This document shows positions 1-37,872 of a DNA stretch of 37,872 nucleotides, piece by piece (positions within the stretch are counted from its first letter, which is position 1; each line of letters opens with the position of its first letter). A model generated the notes under the pieces. The model worked only from the letters and a program-made list of their open reading frames with translations, did not search any database and was not told where the DNA came from. The position numbers were made by a program, and so were the translations under genes. The stretch is from positions 1 to 37,872 of the IMG/VR virus record IMGVR_UViG_2563366845_000004, one strand, 5' to 3'. Origin of the DNA: a virus. Lineage: Duplodnaviria > Heunggongvirae > Uroviricota > Caudoviricetes.

Positions 1-1053
1 TTACGGGGTAATGCCAACCGCTGCCGCCACTTTGTCGCCATTTGGTAACGTTGCCAGTGGATTGAAACGGAGCGCCGTTTCCAAATGATCCGGTGCCAGA
101 TGCGCATAACGCATAGTCATTTTTATATCGTGATGTCCGAGAATTTTTTGTAAGGCCAAGATGTTTCCACCCGACATCATGAAGTGCGCCGCAAACGTAT
201 GGCGCAGAACGTGTGTCAGTTGACCGCGAGGGAGAACGATAGACGTTTTTTCCATCACGGATAAAAATTGAAAATAGCAGTCTGTGAAGAAATTGAACCC
301 ATCGAGCGCCATGATCTCTTCATAAAGCTCTTTACTGATAGGGATGCTTCTGTTTTTCTTACCCTTCGTTCTCACAAAGGTGATTCGGTACTTGGTGACC
401 TGTGAGCGAGTAAGATTGATTGCTTCTCGCCAACGTGCACCTGTACTTAGACATATTTTTACCACCAGTGCCAGAATTGGGTTCTGACGTTTGCAGTCAG
501 ACAGTAATTCGATAATCTGCTCATGTGTAAGCCATGCCATTTCCTTTTCTGCGATAGTGAATTTGCGCATCTTCTCTAATGGGTTTGGAAGTGTCCATTC
601 ACCCAGGCGGGAAAGTTCTCTGAAAACGCTGCTTAGATGGCTTTGCTCCAGGTTAACAGTAACTGGGCTTGCTCCTTTCTTCCATTTTTCACTGAAGTAG
701 ATTTCACCAGTAAGGCGTTTATCGCGATAGTGAGCAAACATTTTTGAGGTGAGATCAGTTGCAAGGGGATTTCCCAAGGCGTCAACCATCAACAGCAGCT
801 TGTTGTAGACATGCTGTCCGGCAGTAAGAGATTTGCCATGTAATTTGAACCATAGCTCAACCATATCTTTCAGTGTCCGACGATCCACTGATTCGCCCAG
901 CCAGGGCTTTGCTTCTATTTCCCCCATGGTGTATCGCTCGAAGGCCAGTGCTTCGCCTTTGGTGGCGAATTGTTTACGCACACGGCGTCCGCTACGTCCG
1001 GCGGGGTAACATTCGCAAAGCCATTTCCCTGTGGTTAGTTTTCGTACTGCCAT
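1..1053 (-). CDS. int: Tyrosine recombinase / phage integrase (P2/186 family)
   Basis: 350-aa ORF; C-terminal catalytic region with ...HVLRHTFA...HHDIKMTMRYAHL... typical of the lambda/P2 integrase family; first gene inside attL. Confidence 0.9.
   Translation of the reverse strand: MAVRKLTTGKWLCECYPAGRSGRRVRKQFATKGEALAFERYTMGEIEAKPWLGESVDRRTLKDMVELWFKLHGKSLTAGQHVYNKLLLMVDALGNPLATDLTSKMFAHYRDKRLTGEIYFSEKWKKGASPVTVNLEQSHLSSVFRELSRLGEWTLPNPLEKMRKFTIAEKEMAWLTHEQIIELLSDCKRQNPILALVVKICLSTGARWREAINLTRSQVTKYRITFVRTKGKKNRSIPISKELYEEIMALDGFNFFTDCYFQFLSVMEKTSIVLPRGQLTHVLRHTFAAHFMMSGGNILALQKILGHHDIKMTMRYAHLAPDHLETALRFNPLATLPNGDKVAAAVGITP
19..41. repeat. attL core (CGCTGCCGCCACTTTGTCGCCAT), lying inside the 3' end of int
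   Basis: Matches 35018..35040 at 22 of 23 positions; the two copies bracket the whole prophage. Confidence 0.6.
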
Positions 1054-1077: not shown

Positions 1078-1138
1078 AAATTTAACTGTATATTTAAACA
1101 GTTATCAATGTATGTTTAGGATGAAATAAACATTGGCC

Positions 1139-2128
1139 TTACTCCTGTGCTTTTTCAGCGGTACTTGGCTTTAGTTTTTCTTTGGTTGAATCCCATAAAG
1201 ATTGGATTCCCGGAGGGAGTTCTGTTTTGTCAGAAAATGCAGAGTTACCAGACATATTCCAGTCTTTAAAGACTAACACAGCATCTTCTTTTGTTGACGT
1301 GGAACCATAAATTTGCAGGAATACTTGCCCAAACATTAGTGCATGTCTTCTATCTTTTCTCAAAATTGATTCATGGGTATATTTTTTAGAGTTTCCAAGG
1401 CAAATATATGCTAGCCAAGAAAGAATGGAAATACCAATTAAACCACGTGTGAAAAAATAAAATAGCTCAAAGCCTTTAACATTGTTGAAGTCAATTGTGG
1501 CGTAGAGTGTATAAAATGATGCACATACAGCAAGTAGCCCGAAAATGCAGCCAGTAAAAGCCCATACTTGCGACATTTTAATGAAATATAAGTCATCTGA
1601 ACTTAGTTCACTTTTAACGCTATCGACATATCCTGGTATTTTCTCATCAATCCTTTCTTGTTGTACTCGGCTTTGTAATTCGCTGTTAGATGCTTCAAGT
1701 TGCTTTATTCTAGATACGGCTTGCTCAATAATTGCTTCTTTTTCAGAATTTAGTTTTTCTAAATTTTCATTCCGAAGATGTAACGTAGCTTTGGACTCTT
1801 CAGCCTCCAATAAACGTTTGGTATATGATCGCATTATCTCTCGAAGATGTTTTTGTTCTTTTATTAATTCATCTATCTTGTTGTTTTCATTAATAAAAAT
1901 ATCTCCAACTTTATCGCTGTAGTTCATTTTTTCTTGCTGGGTTAATTTCCAGTAGTATTCTCTGAATTTATCAATTTCACCTTTTTTTAATAAGTCGATT
2001 AAGTAGGCGCGCTCATTTTCATTAAATTTATGCGGATTTTCATTTAAAATATTATAAAGATCTTTCCATTCGCAATTAACTTTTTCAACATAATCGATGT
2101 TTTCATTTTTTTTATTTTCAGAATTCAT
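1139..2128 (-). CDS. Hypothetical coiled-coil / multi-pass membrane protein (lysogeny-operon moron; candidate superinfection exclusion or abortive-infection protein)
   Basis: ORF 1139..2206; probable start ATG at 2128 (MNSENKK...) with AGGAA RBS, 10 nt after the repressor stop codon. K/E-rich heptad-like N-terminal region, then three hydrophobic helices (e.g. VWAFTGCIFGLLAVCASFYTLY, LIGISILSWLAYICLG). Strongly AT-rich compared with neighbours. Confidence 0.6.
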   Translation of the reverse strand: MNSENKKNENIDYVEKVNCEWKDLYNILNENPHKFNENERAYLIDLLKKGEIDKFREYYWKLTQQEKMNYSDKVGDIFINENNKIDELIKEQKHLREIMRSYTKRLLEAEESKATLHLRNENLEKLNSEKEAIIEQAVSRIKQLEASNSELQSRVQQERIDEKIPGYVDSVKSELSSDDLYFIKMSQVWAFTGCIFGLLAVCASFYTLYATIDFNNVKGFELFYFFTRGLIGISILSWLAYICLGNSKKYTHESILRKDRRHALMFGQVFLQIYGSTSTKEDAVLVFKDWNMSGNSAFSDKTELPPGIQSLWDSTKEKLKPSTAEKAQE

Positions 2129-2138
2129 GTATGTTCCT

Positions 2139-3077
2139 TTAAATTTCCTTTGAAAAAACGCAACAACATTTTGCGATGGTTGTAATGTCTTCAAGCTTAC
2201 AAACAAAATCAGTTGTATCTGATGTGATTTTTACTTTTCCAACTGGAATTCTTGTTAATTTTCTTAAACTTACTTTACCTTCAATCTCAATCAACCAACT
2301 ACCATCTGAAACATCATCATATTCTGTATCTGCAATAAAGGTTTTTCCTTCTGCGGTAACTCCAATCGGTTTTTTCAATCCGGAAGGTATAAGCGTCTTG
2401 TCAAATGCTAAGTAGCCTTCATCATGTAATTTACCGTCAATGATTGTTTGGTGTTTAAGTTGGGCTACAGAGCTGGAATTATCGAAAAATTTGGGGCCAT
2501 TGCCGTTTGTGAGCCAGAGTAATGAAGCTCCTGTTTCAAGAGCGCATTGAATGATCCAATCGCTAGGAAACGTGTCTCGTAAGTACCTGTTTGCTACAGT
2601 GCTTTTTGAAACCTGCAAATGGTTTGCTAGGGCTTGTCGGGTGCTAAAGCCGTAGGCTGCGACTAAGCGATCAATTGCCGCCTTCCCTCCTTTATTAGGA
2701 TTTATGCTGGTCTCGATTGGGAACTTTTGGACTGTTGAGTTAGTTCTATCCGGGTCATCAGATTTGGTATGGGCTAAACGTTCATCATTTAATAAAACTG
2801 AGGGTGATTCACAGCTGATTCCTGATGCCAACCAGTCGATAGATGCGCCGGTCTCTATACTGCAAATTATCACCCAGTCAGCAGGAAATGTGTCACGAGC
2901 ATACCTGTTAGCCATCGTGCTTTGTGAGATACCCAGATGATTGCAAAATGCTTGCCGCGAAGTAAAACCATACGCAACAAGTATACGCTCAATTACTTTC
3001 TGTCCCCCACGGTTTTGCATTATTGAAGTTTTTAGACTCTCGCTAACATGGCGAAATGTGTTTTTTTGAGTTGACAT
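2139..3077 (-). CDS. cI: 186 CI-like immunity repressor with tandemly duplicated N-terminal HTH domain
   Basis: 312 aa; two consecutive copies of the CI N-terminal domain (…ERILVAYGFTSRQAFCNHLGISQSTMANRYARDTFPADW…ETGASIDWL… and …DRLVAAYGFSTRQALANHLQVSKSTVANRYLRDTFPSDW…ETGASLLWL…), then a C-terminal region resembling the 186 CI C-terminal domain (SDGSWLIEIEGKVSLRKLT). Divergent from the apl-like gene. Confidence 0.7.
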   Translation of the reverse strand: MSTQKNTFRHVSESLKTSIMQNRGGQKVIERILVAYGFTSRQAFCNHLGISQSTMANRYARDTFPADWVIICSIETGASIDWLASGISCESPSVLLNDERLAHTKSDDPDRTNSTVQKFPIETSINPNKGGKAAIDRLVAAYGFSTRQALANHLQVSKSTVANRYLRDTFPSDWIIQCALETGASLLWLTNGNGPKFFDNSSSVAQLKHQTIIDGKLHDEGYLAFDKTLIPSGLKKPIGVTAEGKTFIADTEYDDVSDGSWLIEIEGKVSLRKLTRIPVGKVKITSDTTDFVCKLEDITTIAKCCCVFSKEI

Positions 3078-3165
3078 AACCGTTATGAGATCCTAATCTC
3101 CGTTTTGTGAAGTTCTGGTCACAATTCAAACCGGCTCACCACAAGCCAATAGGAGATGTTGCATC
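3078..3165. promoter_or_regulatory. Early switch region (pR/pL-type divergent promoters and operators) between repressor and apl-like gene
   Basis: Intergenic region between divergent cI and apl/cox-like genes; contains the short inverted repeat GAGAT-CCTA-ATCTC (3087..3100) and an AGGAG RBS for the rightward gene. Confidence 0.4.
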
Positions 3166-3387
3166 ATGACCCCTAACATTTCAATAACTCTGAATACGCC
3201 ACATGTCACAATTGAGCGTTATAGCGAACTTACTGGTCTTTCAATCGACACAATTAACGATATGCTGGCTGACGGTCGCATCCCTCGGCATCGCCTTCGG
3301 AAAGACAAGAAAAGAGAAAAGGTGATGATCAACCTTGCTGCTCTTACCGTTGATGCACTTACTGATTGCAATGTTGTATTCAACTAG
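3166..3387 (+). CDS. Apl/Cox-like excisionase / early transcriptional regulator (HTH)
   Basis: 73 aa, first rightward gene opposite the repressor; HTH-like segment [22 protein letters not shown]; AGGAG RBS. Confidence 0.6.
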
Positions 3388-3419
3388 TTCCATTTTGGGA
3401 TACATCAGGGGTGTCGACC

Positions 3420-3929
3420 ATGTTTGATTACCAAGTTTCCAAACATCCACATTTTGATGAAGCCTGTCGTGCATTCGCACTGCGCCACAACCTGGTGCAA
3501 CTGGCAGAACGTGCAGGCATGAATGTGCAGATTCTGCGGAACAAGCTGAACCCAGCTCAACCTCATTTATTAACCGCACCAGATATCTGGCTACTTACCG
3601 ATCTGACTGAAGATTCAACGCTGGTAGACGGTTTTCTGGCACAGATTCATTGTCTGCCATGTGTACCGATTAATGAGGTGGCAAAAGAGAAACTGCCACA
3701 TTACGTCATGAGTGCAACCGCAGAGATCGGGCGTGTTGCTGCAGGTGCGGTATCTGGCGATGTAAAAACCAGTGCAGGTCGTCGTGATGCTATCAGCAGC
3801 ATTAACTCTGTAACACGACTGATGGCGTTGGCTGCTGTTTCATTGCAGGCCCGTTTACAGGCTAACCCTGCGATGGCGAGTGCAGTTGATACCGTGACTG
3901 GCCTCGGTGCTTCATTCGGTTTGCTGTGA
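3420..3929 (+). CDS. cII: Phage regulatory protein CII (186 CII-like)
   Basis: ORF 3366..3929; start at [10 protein letters not shown] gives 169 aa, which I recall as the 186 CII length; positioned directly after apl as in 186. Confidence 0.65.
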
Positions 3930-3936
3930 GGTACTT

Positions 3937-4233
3937 ATGCTGACGAAAGAACCATCATTTGCATCGCTGCTGGTAAAGCAAAGCCCGGCAATGCACTACG
4001 GTCACGGCTGGATCATGGGTGAGGATGGAAAACGCTGGCATCCATGTCATTCACAAGATGAATTGCTGTCTGAATTGACCACGAGGAAACGGAGAAAGTC
4101 AAAATGTATGCAGCGGAAGGTGAAGTGGTTTATCAGTTTCGTTACAGAGGGGAGAGTTATTCAGTACCTGAAGATGATTTGCTCTGTTGTTATCCGTCGT
4201 TGTCGGGCGATGGCAGTTACTTTTTCACGCTAA
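3937..4233 (+). CDS. Hypothetical early protein (reading frame uncertain in its 3' part)
   Basis: ORF 3907..4233 with plausible start at MLTKEP; the last ~40 codons overlap the next gene in another frame and look low-complexity. Confidence 0.3.
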   Translation: MLTKEPSFASLLVKQSPAMHYGHGWIMGEDGKRWHPCHSQDELLSELTTRKRRKSKCMQRKVKWFISFVTEGRVIQYLKMICSVVIRRCRAMAVTFSR

Positions 4234-8577: not shown

Positions 8578-8597
8578 TACTGTAAATATAAACAGTG
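8578..8597. promoter_or_regulatory. LexA (SOS) box TACTGTAAATATAAACAGTG upstream of the Tum/DinI-like genes
   Basis: CTGT-N8-ACAG with an AT-rich spacer matches the E. coli LexA consensus; a candidate -35 TTTACA lies at 8555..8560 and an extra ACAGTAT half-site at 8607..8613. Confidence 0.7.
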
Positions 8598-8638
8598 GTT
8601 ATGTGTACAGTATTGCTTGTGGTGTCATAGGAGGAAAA

Positions 8639-8827
8639 ATGCAGGACTATTTTTTGGAGTCTTTGAAGCTCCAGCGCATTGATTTTTTTCTTAAGCTTGT
8701 AGCGGCTAGTGAGTGTAGTGATGAAGAGAAGGGGCTGGCTCTGCAGTGGGTTTCTGAATTGACTGATGAACTCATGGCAAAAATCAGAAGCCACGAATAC
8801 AACCGCTCAATGGATGTCATCAGCTGA
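8639..8827 (+). CDS. Small SOS-regulated protein (possible Tum-like antirepressor N-terminal part)
   Basis: 62 aa, strong AGGAGG RBS, immediately downstream of the LexA box and followed 10 nt later by a DinI-like ORF. Confidence 0.5.
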   Translation: MQDYFLESLKLQRIDFFLKLVAASECSDEEKGLALQWVSELTDELMAKIRSHEYNRSMDVIS

Positions 8828-8837
8828 GGTGACTTTT

Positions 8838-9071
8838 ATGCGCATTGAAATAATGATCGATAAAGAGCAGAAAATTAGCCAGTCTACCCTGGACGCCCTT
8901 GAATCCGAGCTTTACCGCAGTCTGCGCCCCCTGTATCCCAAAACGGTAATTCGTATCCGCAAAGGTAGCTCTAACGGTGTGGAACTGACCGGACTGCAAC
9001 TGGACGAAGAAAGAAAACAAGTGATGAAAATTATGCAGAAGGTGTGGGAAGACGACAGCTGGCTGCATTAA
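8838..9071 (+). CDS. DinI-family protein (DinI/Tum C-terminal-like)
   Basis: 77 aa beginning MRIEIMIDKE... and ending ...QKVWEDDSWLH, matching the DinI fold signature; GAGGTGA RBS. Confidence 0.75.
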   Translation: MRIEIMIDKEQKISQSTLDALESELYRSLRPLYPKTVIRIRKGSSNGVELTGLQLDEERKQVMKIMQKVWEDDSWLH

Positions 9072-11107: not shown

Positions 11108-12547
11108 ATGACGCCAAAAGTTTTTATATCATATAGTTGGAGTAGCCCAGCTCATAAGGAAAGAGTTAAAGCAATAGCTGATAGACTTTTGAGTGATGGA
11201 GTGGATGTTGTCATTGACATATATGATTTGAAGGAGGGCAATGATAAAAACGCATTCATGGAAAAAATGATTGTTGATAAAAGTATCACCAATGTGCTTG
11301 TGATGTGTGATTCAGTTTACGCAAAAAAAGCTGATAACAAACAAAGTGGGGTTGGCACAGAATCCCAGATCATCTCTCAACAAGTCTACACAAAAGTCGA
11401 ACAATCAAAATTTATACCTATTGTTTGTGAATTTGATGAGAATTCAGAACCTTGTCTTCCTGTTTTTATGAGTTCGCTAATATGGATTGACCTTTCAACA
11501 CCAGAAAAAGAAAATCAAAATTGGGAACGGTTAGTAAGGCTGCTTAATGGAAAACCAGCAGATATAAAACCTAAGCTTGGAAAAAGACCAAGTTATTTAG
11601 ATAGTGGGCAATATGATCCGGTGAGTGAACCACACGCAAAATTTAATAGCTTGAAACAAGCTGTTTTGCAAAATAGGGCAGGTGTTAGTTATTATCGGCG
11701 TGATTTCGTTGATTCAGTAGTCAAGTACCTTGACGGGATGAGAATCCGAGCTCGCCCAGAGCAAAATGATTTACAAAGCATGGGTAGGAAAATAATTAGC
11801 GACGTTGCTGCCATGAAGCCTATCAGGGATTATGTGTGTGAATGGATAACTCTTGAGGCAGAGTTTACGATGCAGGATGAATTTTCAACAGAACTAGTAA
11901 AGTTCTTTGAAAAAGTTCTGTTACTAACCGAAGCTCCTAGCGATGTCAGTTCATGGCAATTAAACTGGTATGATGCACAAAAGGTATTTGCATACGAAAT
12001 TTTCTTATATTCAGTTGCTATATTGATTAGATTAGAGAAGTTTCAATTAGTACGTGCGATTTTATCTGCCAGATTCCTTTCTGGTGATAGGCAGTTACCA
12101 CCGGAACATAGACTCGTGTCAATTAGCGCTTTCTTAGCTGATTCTGAAACGCTACAGGCAGGTTTTGAAGAAGATATAAGGTATTACTCTCCAGTTGCAG
12201 AGCTAATTAAAAGAAATGCAGATAGGGAAGATATTACCTTTTCTGATCTTATGCAGGCTGATGTGCTAGTTCTTTTTTATTCATTTTGTAATGATGGTGT
12301 CTATTGGTATCCATGCACTATTCATTATGCGAGTTATAATTATAGACCTGAACTATTTTTAAGAGCGACACAGCATAAGTATTTTGAATATTTAGCAATG
12401 ATTGCCGGGATAGCGTCAGCGCAAGAGATCAAATTGAAGGTTAAGGCCGGCGCTCAGAGTATGCATAATTCAGGGGTTAGATATGGACGTATGGGGACTG
12501 GTTTTGAAAGTATGATGAACGCCGATAACCTTGATTTTATAAAATGA
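11108..12547 (+). CDS. SEFIR/TIR-domain protein with an uncharacterised C-terminal domain (candidate single-gene antiphage effector)
   Basis: 479 aa; N-terminus KVFISYSWSSPAHKERVKAIADRLLSDGVDVVIDIYDL...NVLVMCDSVY fits the SEFIR/TIR (STIR) signature; moderately AT-rich; convergent with the portal gene. Confidence 0.65.
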   Translation: MTPKVFISYSWSSPAHKERVKAIADRLLSDGVDVVIDIYDLKEGNDKNAFMEKMIVDKSITNVLVMCDSVYAKKADNKQSGVGTESQIISQQVYTKVEQSKFIPIVCEFDENSEPCLPVFMSSLIWIDLSTPEKENQNWERLVRLLNGKPADIKPKLGKRPSYLDSGQYDPVSEPHAKFNSLKQAVLQNRAGVSYYRRDFVDSVVKYLDGMRIRARPEQNDLQSMGRKIISDVAAMKPIRDYVCEWITLEAEFTMQDEFSTELVKFFEKVLLLTEAPSDVSSWQLNWYDAQKVFAYEIFLYSVAILIRLEKFQLVRAILSARFLSGDRQLPPEHRLVSISAFLADSETLQAGFEEDIRYYSPVAELIKRNADREDITFSDLMQADVLVLFYSFCNDGVYWYPCTIHYASYNYRPELFLRATQHKYFEYLAMIAGIASAQEIKLKVKAGAQSMHNSGVRYGRMGTGFESMMNADNLDFIK

Positions 12548-34708: not shown

Positions 34709-34798
34709 TTCTTCGCAATGGAGAACTTTTAAGTTTTCAAAATGGAATAATGCGGTATCATTATTGTGAATTTAGCAAAAATGGGGAGAACTCGAAAA

Positions 34799-35017
34799 AT
34801 GATGATTTGCCCACTGTGTGGAAGTGCCGCCCATACTCGCAGCAGTTTTCAGGTATCTTCATTGACCAAAGAGCGTTACAACCAGTGCCAGAACATTAAC
34901 TGCAGCCATACTTTTGTTACCCATGAAACTTTTGTTCGTTCGATTGCAACGCCAAAAGAGTCAAATCCGGTTCAGCCGCATCCAATGAAATCAGGACAGG
35001 TGGCGCTCTCTCTTTGA
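34799..35017 (+). CDS. ogr: Ogr/Delta-family zinc-finger late-gene transcription activator
   Basis: 72 aa from MMICPLCGSAAH...CQNINCSHTF (CxxC-N22-CxxxxC), P2 Ogr length; GGGAGA RBS; stop abuts the attR core. Confidence 0.85.
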   Translation: MMICPLCGSAAHTRSSFQVSSLTKERYNQCQNINCSHTFVTHETFVRSIATPKESNPVQPHPMKSGQVALSL

Positions 35018-35040: not shown

Positions 35041-35252
35041 CGTTAAAAAACAGTGCTTCTAACATCATGATTTTAAAAGGTATAAATTTCAGGCAACAAA
35101 AAACCCACCAACCTTGAACCAAAATGGCGGGGTTGATGGGCTCCACAAAATGGGGACATCAAAGAAAAGCAGTGGCACTAATTAAGACTGATGCCCTGCG
35201 GAAAAGTTCTGCGGTTGTGCAAAAAAATTTCATTTTCAGGGCAACTTCAGTT

Positions 35253-36938
35253 TTATCCTAATCCTGGCCATACCATGACGATGATTGTCCCTGCCAGCGT
35301 CAGCAGGACGTTGGCGATTGCGTAAGTGCCCGCATAGCCCAGCGCCGGGATATTACTGCGAGCTGTATCACTGATGATCTCCATTGCCGGCGCGCAGGTG
35401 CGTGCGCCCATCATTGCGCCGAACAACAGTGCGCGGTTCATTCGCAATACATAAGCACCGAACAAGAAGCAGATAACCACTGGCACCAGACTGACAATCA
35501 ATCCGGCAATCAACATCTGACCGCCAATCGCGCCCAGGCCGTTATTAATACCGCTACCAGCGCTCAGACCAACGCCTGCCATAAACACCATCAAGCCGAA
35601 CTCCTTCACCATGCTTAATGCACCCTGCGGAATGTAACCGAAGGTCGGGTGGTTAGCACGCATAAAGCCCAGCATAATTCCGGCGAATAACAACCCGGCA
35701 GCGTTCCCCATGCCGAAACTGAATGTGCTGAACTGGAAGGTGATCATCCCGATCATCAGCCCAATAACAAAGAAGGCGCAGAATGCCAGCAAGTCAGTGA
35801 CCTGGCTGTGAATCGAGATAAAGCCGATGCGATCGGCGATGGTTTTTACCCGGCGGGCATCGCCGCTGACTTGTAAAACGTCACCTTTGTTAAGCACGAC
35901 GTTGTCATCAATCGGCATCTCAATCTGGCTACGAATGACGCGGTTAAGGAAGCAACCGTGATCGGTCAACTTCAGTTGTGCCAGGCGTTTGCCAACAGCG
36001 TTATGGTTTTTAACGACCACTTCTTCAGTGACGATACGCATGTCGAGAAGGTCACGATCGAAAACTTCTTTGCCATTACGGAAACTGGGATCGAGTCGGG
36101 CGTGGGCGTCAGGATAGCCTACCAACGCTATTTCATCGCCCATTTGTAGTACGGCATCACCGTCTGGATTTGCCAGAATCCCGTTACGCCGAATACGTTC
36201 AATGTAGCAGCCGGTTTGTCGATAAATACCCAGTTCACGCAGATTTTTGCCGTCGGTCCAGGCTACCAGCTCCGGGCCGACGCGGTAGGCGCGGATCACC
36301 GGCAAATAAACCTTACGGTTGGCATCTGTGTCCAGGCCACGTTCGCGGGCGATTTGCTGGGCGCTGGTCTGTAAGTCCTGATGCTGCAATTTCGGCAAGT
36401 AACGCGCACCAACAATCAAACTCACCAGACCGATTAAATAGGTTAAGGCATACCCGAGGCTCAGATTATCCAGTGCCAGTGAGAGCTGCCTGCTTTCCAT
36501 GCCGGAATGACGCAGTGTATCGCCAGCACCGACCAGAACCGGTGTCGACGTCATAGAGCCTGCTAACATACCGGCCGTCAGGCCAATATCCCAGCCAAAC
36601 AGCTTACCTAACCCTAAGGCGATCACCAGCGCACTGCCAACCATCACCAGTGCTAACATTAGGTAATTTTTCCCATCGCGAAAAAAAATGGAAAAAAAGT
36701 TCGGTCCGGCTTCGACCCCGACGCAGAAAATAAACAGCATAAAGCCAAGATTAAGCGCGTCGGTGTTAATGCTGAAATGTTGTTGGCCTAATAACAGCGA
36801 TACGACTAAAACGCCAATGGAATTACCCAGTTGGATCGAACCAAGTCGTAATTTCCCGAGACATAGCCCAAGCGCGAGGACCACAAATAATAACAGAATG
36901 TAATTCCCATTTAACAATTCGGCGACGTTTATATTCAC
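35253..36938 (-). CDS. ybjL: Host putative transport protein YbjL (AAE-family permease with central regulatory domains)
   Basis: 561 aa with multi-pass membrane repeats at both ends and a central soluble region; followed by ybjM and grxA as in E. coli. Confidence 0.8.
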
Positions 36939-37614: not shown

Positions 37615-37872
37615 TCAGGCGTCCAGATTCTCTTTCACCCATGCAGCAAAATCGGTATAGCCGCCGATATGTTGCTGATCGACAAAAATCTGCGGCACGG
37701 TTTCTACGGGTTTACCTGCCTTTTGTTGTAGATCTTCTTTAGTGATCCCTTCCGCACGAATATCAACATACTGATACTGAAAATCATCGCGTTCATTGCT
37801 CAATTTCTCAGCCAGATCTTTTGCACGCACACAGTAAGGGCAACCCGGACGACCAAAAATAACGGTTTGCAT
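37615..37872 (-). CDS. grxA: Glutaredoxin 1
   Basis: 85 aa starting MQTVIFGRPGCPYCVRAKDLAEKL... with the CPYC active site; its start codon is the last triplet of the window. Confidence 0.9.
   Translation of the reverse strand: MQTVIFGRPGCPYCVRAKDLAEKLSNERDDFQYQYVDIRAEGITKEDLQQKAGKPVETVPQIFVDQQHIGGYTDFAAWVKENLDA

Follow-up and report, generated by a model that had tools for sequence, protein, structure and literature searches.

The CI repressor of coliphage 186 is among the few whose higher-order mechanism is understood, namely a 14-mer wheel that wraps and loops DNA. It is a short, single-headed protein (192 aa in the 186 record) with a helix-turn-helix (HTH) domain, or head, of family PF07022 at its N terminus and a C-terminal oligomerisation domain (CTD) of family PF16452, for which there are structures of the full-length protein (PDB 2FJR) and of the C-terminal 14-mer (PDB 2FKD), and its gene lies by int, divergent from apl and cII. 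A survey of 18 CI proteins published in 2011 noted only longer C-terminal domains or longer couplers, and it also found the immunity repressor of the sister switch type, protein C of P2-like phages, which is of an unrelated family and size, not to be alignable with CI proteins (PMC3448106). Here, we describe the cI gene of a 186-like (Peduoviridae, Eganvirus-like) E. coli prophage contained in a stretch of 37,872 nt (positions 1 to 37,872 of IMG/VR record IMGVR_UViG_2563366845_000004, hereafter the window), which is placed as in 186 but encodes a 312-aa repressor with two heads. The reading that we favour, with somewhat better than even confidence, is that a canonical CI has been fitted with an additional, captured head on a tether, and that both heads read DNA at composite operators. 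This two-head architecture is widespread and apparently undescribed, our literature searches for a described double-head CI having found none.

The gene and its parts are the following.

2139–3077, minus strand: cI gene, 312 aa, with the stop codon TAA (2139–2141) within the coordinates
Start candidates of cI, minus strand: ATG at 3075–3077 or the in-frame ATG at codon 20 (the RefSeq choice in some genomes)
3012–3077, minus strand: leader, residues 1–22 (MSTQKNTFRH...)
2808–3011, minus strand: N1, first PF07022 HTH domain, residues 23–90 (Pfam, profile, AlphaFold2)
2694–2807, minus strand: linker, hypervariable and predicted to be disordered, residues 91–128
2490–2693, minus strand: N2, second PF07022 HTH domain, residues 129–196, counterpart of the 186 CI N-terminal domain
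2163–2459, minus strand: PF16452 CI C-terminal (oligomerisation) domain, residues 207–305 (Pfam, AlphaFold2, Foldseek)

Both heads are retained whichever start is chosen. That the protein is a member of the 186-type CI family (PF07022 plus PF16452), in a variant architecture with two heads, is near certain. In a Pfam scan it matches PF07022 (Phage_CI_repr) in two stretches (E 5.6e-55) and PF16452 (Phage_CI_C) at residues 207–305 (E 1.4e-30), with no Peptidase_S24 at E <= 0.01, which leaves the JGI name 'HTH and peptidase S24' unsupported; LexA C-domains are matched by Foldseek as a distant fold only (E 1e-6 to 1e-3, 10–15% identity). Residues 14–190 of 186 CI align with residues 135–310 (35% identity, E 4e-40), and its N-terminal domain (13–71) aligns a second time with residues 28–86 (41% identity, E 2e-15), in agreement with the alignment to PDB 2fjr, in which 186 CI lies end to end on N2 plus CTD and its N-terminal domain again on N1. 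The two heads, whose limits were set by a profile made from both copies, align with each other without gaps (residues 15–86 vs 121–192; 42/72 or 58% identity, BLASTP E 7e-36). An AlphaFold2 model, computed for the monomer only from an alignment of 32 double-head homologues, has a five-helix pattern in N1 (25–36/41–48/52–60/66–76/80–85) and a matching one in N2 (131–142/147–154/158–167/172–182/186–191), both at a predicted local distance difference test score (pLDDT) of ~85–90, and a C-terminal beta domain at ~90, with linker residues 89–122 below 50. Foldseek places 2fjr_A at the top (E 8e-19), and the model of the CTD superposes on that of 186 CI (2fkd_A) with a template modelling score of 0.93 and a root-mean-square deviation of 1.6 Å. 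Engineered single-chain repressors are laboratory constructs comparable to such a protein. Another is the lambda–186 hybrid repressor (PDB 7JVT), the second-best structural and sequence match to the 312-aa protein, in which the 186 CTD bears a foreign N-terminal DNA-binding domain; in that construct the head was replaced, whereas here a natural second head of the same family has been added and the first kept.

An earlier note, made from the sequence alone, had described a CI repressor of 186 type with two copies of a ~60-residue N-terminal HTH domain and one C-terminal oligomerisation domain, as opposed to a single-headed 186 CI of about 192 aa. Pfam and the alignment with 186 CI agree with this, and alignment and structure prediction, which the note had put forward as checks, both make the second copy an HTH domain with the same five helices and not a linker or another fold. 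The two copies are not, however, 'back to back' as the note had it, since ~38 hypervariable, predicted disordered residues separate N1 from N2. What distinguishes the protein from 186 CI is, in other words, an extra HTH head on an N-terminal tether of that length.

The two heads have different ancestries. In neighbour-joining trees of heads (200 bootstraps), the main double-head group has its N1 in one clade with the heads of a rare kind of single-head repressor, ~207 aa long (the 'MSN.K.T.RH' class, here N1-type; 87.5% bootstrap), and N2 sequences fall among the heads of single-head repressors of ~198 aa (the 'MSTSKYPNEIKINPNQGGK' class of 186-like enterobacterial prophages, here N2-type). 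Mean head identities are 83% for N1–N1, 75% for N2–N2, 57% for N1–N2, 76% for N1 against the ~207-aa class and 78% for N2 against the ~198-aa class. At the DNA level, residues ~114–312 are homologous to a whole single-head cI from its codon 2 to its end, and homology to the double-head gene is undetectable upstream of the single-head ATG; this part of the protein is up to 76% identical to members of the ~198-aa class (P0025). The protein thus consists of an N1 module, then a spacer that varies and lastly a single-head CI in full. The last ~15 residues of the linker match the N-terminal leader of single-head CI proteins, the ~198-aa leader being recognisable there as NSTVQKFPIETSINPNKGGK. As for the surrounding DNA, double-head loci match N2-type loci over apl and the pL side, as far as GTGAC(A/C)AG, and past that point they match N1-type loci (TTCACAAAACGGAGAATAGGATC.CA.AAC ... 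ATG TCA ... ACA TTT CGC CAT). The double-head loci thereby have the apl/pL module in common with one class, and head, leader and pR-proximal DNA in common with the other; each of these classes has one head, and the protein here joins the head of the ~207-aa class to a whole protein of the ~198-aa type. The simplest reading is that a segment with N1-type pR-proximal DNA and an N1 head replaced the pR-proximal operators of an N2-type phage and was fused in frame to its cI. N1 was, on these comparisons, captured long ago from another repressor lineage, together with pR-proximal operator DNA.

The earlier note had instead called the domain 'tandemly duplicated', and two similar domains in one open reading frame (ORF) are indeed the one feature that speaks for a recent in-place tandem duplication, an assembly artefact or a decaying fusion pseudogene. 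The nucleotide comparison that it proposed as a check on recent duplication gives ~56% identity (against 58% for the proteins), and the copies fall in different clades and are not each other's closest relatives. Moreover, the cI ORF is intact in the 24 complete E. coli chromosomes that contain window positions 1100–3400 at 99% identity, N1-like DNA (covering at least 80% of the query) occurs in 239 of 5426 complete E. coli genomes (~4%), and both heads bear the marks of purifying selection described below. A recent duplication or an artefact is excluded, and this explanation as a whole is exceedingly unlikely. Duplication proper has occurred elsewhere in the family: in P0246, a distant 327-aa protein, the two heads are mutually nearest (100% bootstrap), so that this protein, as opposed to that of the window with its captured head, contains a genuine duplication of independent origin. 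P0044/P0047 have an N1 that goes with the head of the single-head P0110 (76% bootstrap), and P0024/P0037 and P0046/P0061 represent further, different N1 lineages; by these trees, the two-head architecture arose at least three times.

Double-head proteins account for 49 of the best 120 clusters at 90% identity and are spread over E. coli, Klebsiella, Citrobacter, Enterobacter, Salmonella, Kosakonia and Edwardsiella, and ~60 double-head loci were obtained from IMG/VR. Full-length matches occur in the Klebsiella prophage records ST437-OXA245phi4.2, 4LV2017 and Kp48xx, labelled just 'repressor protein CI', and each of the three E. coli N1-like matches that were inspected proved to be a double-head gene under the name 'phage repressor protein CI'. 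When one head was searched against 1.84 billion representatives at 50% identity, the whole family amounted to only 177 of them at E <= 1e-3, with two stretches in ~25 of the best 150, and five distant double-head representatives that were checked are true combinations of two PF07022 domains and PF16452 (285–327 aa). Four proteins with 3–9 'stretches' (P0178, P0238, P0244 and P0260) were discarded as multi-head repressors, being unrelated repetitive proteins. The two-head form is therefore a recurrent and common variant of the family, but not its canonical form, and the possibility raised in the earlier note that the architecture might be standard in the family holds only by half. A peculiar arrangement is seen in L059 (1875–3424), and also in L060–L062, L081 and E. 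coli ZH48 (L144, 1881–3424), where two repressor genes lie in tandem and in the same orientation: a 191-aa single-head cI beside apl, then, 50 nt on, a 307-aa double-head cI, and then a KAP NTPase gene. The double-head cI in second position lacks the conserved leader DNA (MSTQKLKFSH).

Both heads are under purifying selection, as judged from a comparison of the window gene with 18 diverse double-head genes. Amino acid identity to the window protein is 83–92% for N1, 62–83% for N2, 27–56% for the CTD and 7–50% for the linker. Since third codon positions of N1 are only 34–45% identical, which is near saturation, N1 is the most constrained part of the protein and not a relic. In the 32-protein alignment, invariant or near-invariant columns concentrate, in N1 and N2 alike, in helices 2 and 3 and the turn between them; the N1 recognition helix QSTMANRYA is nearly invariant, and the invariant HTH columns of N2 are R147, H153, S157, S159, T160, A162, R164 and Y165. 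This bears on the view that N2 is a passive spacer or dimerisation module and N1 the sole DNA-binding head, a view that could draw on N1 being the most conserved part and on the pR operators being shared with N1-type single-head loci. We regard it as very unlikely, because N2 has invariant HTH columns and has kept the amino acid identity given above although synonymous sites are saturated. The leader DNA, too, is constrained beyond its coding role, since the fraction of identical codons is 0.80–0.90 in cI codons 1–12 vs 0.40–0.55 elsewhere. A rise in synonymous conservation at the N2 leader (to 0.64–0.69) was dismissed as no greater than that in other hypervariable stretches where only close pairs share residues.

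The elements that might be read by these heads, identified in and around cI, are listed here.

3071–3099, plus strand: candidate pR, picked by eye, with TTGACA (3071–3076, cI codons 1–3), a 17-nt spacer and TAATCT (3094–3099)
3100–3110, minus strand: operator-like R1, TCACAAAACGG
3080–3090, minus strand: operator-like R2, TCTCATAACGG, in the pR spacer
3050–3061, minus strand: operator-like R3, ACACATTTCGCC, within cI codons 6–10
2711–2723, minus strand: internal site TTCCCAATCGAGA, within cI (encoding FPIE in the disordered linker)
3385–3402, plus strand: TAGTTCCATTTTGGGATA, directly after the apl stop, at the position of FR in 186

On the cI-sense strand, R1 and R2 are directly oriented at a distance of 20 bp, a putative operator phasing comparable to the two turns that reportedly separate the three pR operators of 186 (PMC3675496). 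R2 varies between immunity types, and R3 DNA is highly conserved in the double-head genes that adjoin pR. The motifs differ from that of 186, in which a palindrome, TCTCCCAATTGAGAGA, lies inside the annotated CI-binding region at pR; here, the elements are of the form TCNCA-W3-CGG in direct orientation, and direct repeats are also what P2 C binds (PMC2995052). At about −30, a site resembling TCACAAAAC (R1-type) is present in 17/20 double-head loci, in 4/5 single-head loci of N1-type and in 0/16 single-head loci of N2-type. These last have in its place, at −40 and in all 16 cases, CCCAAWTGGG, which resembles TCTCCCAATTGAGAGA and is missing from double-head loci. Because the pR operator segment thus differs from that of single-head relatives sharing the apl/pL module, the proposal in the earlier note that a second head would change operator geometry or specificity is plausible.

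The internal site is one base off TCCCAATTGAGA, a palindromic sequence within the annotated 186 pR CI-binding region, and 11 of 22 double-head genes have there an exact CCCAATTGAG, the core of the 186 pR palindrome; it is the relic of the leader site of a single-head cI. Neither the N1 helix nor R1 varies among double-head genes. The one change in the N2 helix, from ANRY to ATRY, is accompanied by a change in R2 from GGATC..CGG to GGTTC..AGA, and equally by a change in the internal site from CCCAATTGAG to CGAYAATGAA. Because R1 stays constant with the N1 helix while R2 and the internal site vary with the N2 helix, N1 might read R1 and R3, and N2 might read R2 and the internal site, an assignment that is tentative and to which we give somewhat less than even chances.

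Candidate distal elements, for comparison with the 186 distal sites ~300 bp away, are 2711–2723 and 3385–3402, neither being enriched in the window. All three repressor classes (double-head, N2-type single-head and N1-type single-head) have TAGTTCCATTTTGGGATA conserved, also where the DNA flanking it differs, and since it does not discriminate among them it was dropped as an N2-specific FR site; a CI distal site, a pE element and a cII translation signal are candidates for its role. Generic repeat finding in 1900–4000 gave no convincing operator families. Other palindromes were rejected as operators: CATAAC-N-GTTATG, GAGAT-N4-ATCTC and TTGTGA-N8-TCACAA recur in the window no more than chance would allow, the first two being also unconserved in other double-head loci; those near 35.1 kb that resemble the palindrome of the 186 pR CI-binding region lie at the prophage right end (attR region) and not upstream of the Ogr/B-like gene (34766–35017); and TCCCAAAACGG at 8936 lies inside the DinI ORF and was taken as chance. 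Two observations in relatives concern the same region. In N1-type single-head loci (L102–L105 and L018), a conserved AAATCACAAATGGG (encoding ITNG) at cI nt ~315–330, i.e. ~320 bp into cI, resembles FL of 186 in position and both pR motif types in sequence. Upstream of cI in L026, a prophage otherwise 97% identical, there is an 18-bp tandem duplication, ATTGGCTTGTGGTGAGCC x2, on the pL/apl side.

In the mechanism that we propose, a canonical CI (N2 head plus wheel-forming CTD) would bear the extra N1 head on its flexible tether of ~38 residues. The CTD would assemble as in 186, from dimers to the 14-mer wheel, as its similarity to the 186 CTD suggests by analogy, each subunit presenting two heads. 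N1 would read R1 and R3, the invariant TCACA-type elements that lie respectively at the start site of pR and in the leader of cI, and N2 would read the variable R2 in the pR spacer and the palindromic site within cI that resembles the one at 186 pR; a composite set of operators would thus govern both immunity and the repression of pR. The same operator data lend themselves to the chief rival explanation, in which the repressor serves dual immunity: N1 alone would run the phage's own switch, and N2 would be kept mainly against superinfecting phages of N2-type immunity, the phage's own pR having been swapped to N1-type operators and so escaping the repressors of resident N2-type prophages. This would account for the CCCAAWTGGG of all 16 N2-type single-head loci being missing from double-head loci although the recognition helix of N2 does not differ from that of N2-type single-head proteins, and it gains from the tandem loci (L059–L062, L081 and E. 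coli ZH48), in which the double-head cI stands behind a single-head cI and away from pR, and therefore cannot be the primary switch repressor. Covariation of R2 and the internal site with the N2 helix suggests, on the other hand, that N2 has targets in its own genome, and we consider this explanation rather unlikely.

Induction, in the mechanism that we favour, would presumably proceed as in 186 through a LexA-controlled antirepressor. A module at the position of 186 p95-tum consists of these elements.

8580–9071, plus strand: SOS module, with a LexA-box-like site, a 62-aa ORF and a DinI-family ORF
8580–8595: LexA-box-like CTGTAAATATAAACAG, upstream of the 62-aa ORF
8639–8827, plus strand: 62-aa ORF, phrog_698
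8766–9071, plus strand: DinI-family ORF, overlapping the 62-aa ORF

Exact CTGT-N8-ACAG palindromes number two in the window (1086–1101 and 8580–8595) vs 0.54 expected by chance, and the former sits between int and the 329-aa ORF. By analogy of position with tum, 8580–9071 is a candidate antirepressor locus. The LexA box there, behind which come a small ORF and a DinI ORF, and the finding that Tum of 186 binds the repressor and blocks its binding to operators (PMC3121763; note in the 186 record), are compatible with one of the heads being mainly a decoy, or extra target, for Tum-like antirepressors, which would change sensitivity to SOS induction or insulate the prophage from the antirepressors of co-resident relatives. 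Such buffering is quite unlikely in our estimate, the invariant HTH residues in both heads being more simply explained by DNA binding and the small ORF being unrelated in sequence to 186 Tum.

Several points weigh against our preferred reading of a tethered, captured head acting with the ancestral one at composite operators: (i) the covariation of sites with the N2 helix is one clade-level change, effectively a single evolutionary event, (ii) no candidate operator motif is enriched in the window as a whole, (iii) the candidate pR is absent from the list returned by a strict consensus scan, (iv) 186 CI reportedly recognises two distinct sequences with its one HTH (Shearwin et al. 2002, cited in PMC3675496), so two motif types need not imply two heads, (v) the AlphaFold2 model is of beads on a string, with a predicted template modelling score of 0.39, and inter-domain geometry is unreadable from it, and (vi) similarity between the 62-aa ORF and 186 Tum is undetectable.

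The neighbourhood of cI is a 186-type lysis–lysogeny switch, in which the following genes adjoin those already mentioned.

1–1053, minus strand: integrase
1139–2128, minus strand: 329-aa ORF between int and cI, phrog_2628 (unknown function), with a weak Crescentin-rod match
3166–3387, plus strand: Cox/Apl-like excisionase and repressor, 73 aa, divergent from cI (phrog_575, E 1e-31)
3420–3929, plus strand: CII-like activator (PF06892)

Further genes encode DUF5347, DUF2732, a DksA/TraR zinc finger, a Dam methylase and replication gene A. The 329-aa ORF has a coiled-coil region and C-terminal hydrophobic segments, with no confident PADLOC match. Since sister prophages hold different genes between int and cI (an AAA ATPase, a different hypothetical protein or a KAP-family NTPase), this looks like a variable cargo slot, possibly for defence. 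Elsewhere in the window, a 479-aa SEFIR/TIR-domain protein (11108–12547, plus strand) matches the bSEFIR model of PADLOC (E 4.6e-104) and is an anti-phage defence gene carried by the prophage. At the prophage's right end, an Ogr/B-like zinc-finger late activator gene (34766–35017, plus strand) is followed by a probable attR region (~35100–35170) and then by host genes for a YbjL/YidE-type transporter (35253–36938, minus strand) and a glutaredoxin (37615–37872, minus strand), so the window spans essentially the whole prophage.

In conclusion, the two-head form is carried by ~4% of complete E. coli genomes and by named Klebsiella prophages as a generic 'phage repressor protein CI' and, because it hides under that name, predictions of immunity group made from the label or from whole-protein identity will be wrong. 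Compared with the 14 heads on the wheel of 186 CI, a natural and common version of this repressor would have 28, the extra ones on long flexible tethers, which raises the questions of (i) how operator phasing is read on the wheel, (ii) whether one repressor can have two specificities and (iii) how new immunity types arise via module capture. It is possible, if on the unlikely side, that by combining in one polypeptide the heads of two immunity groups such a prophage would gain immunity to two groups of 186-like phages, its own pR, swapped to the operators of the captured head, meanwhile escaping the repressors of the ancestral group, and that head capture would be a recurrent move in the arms race between related temperate phages.

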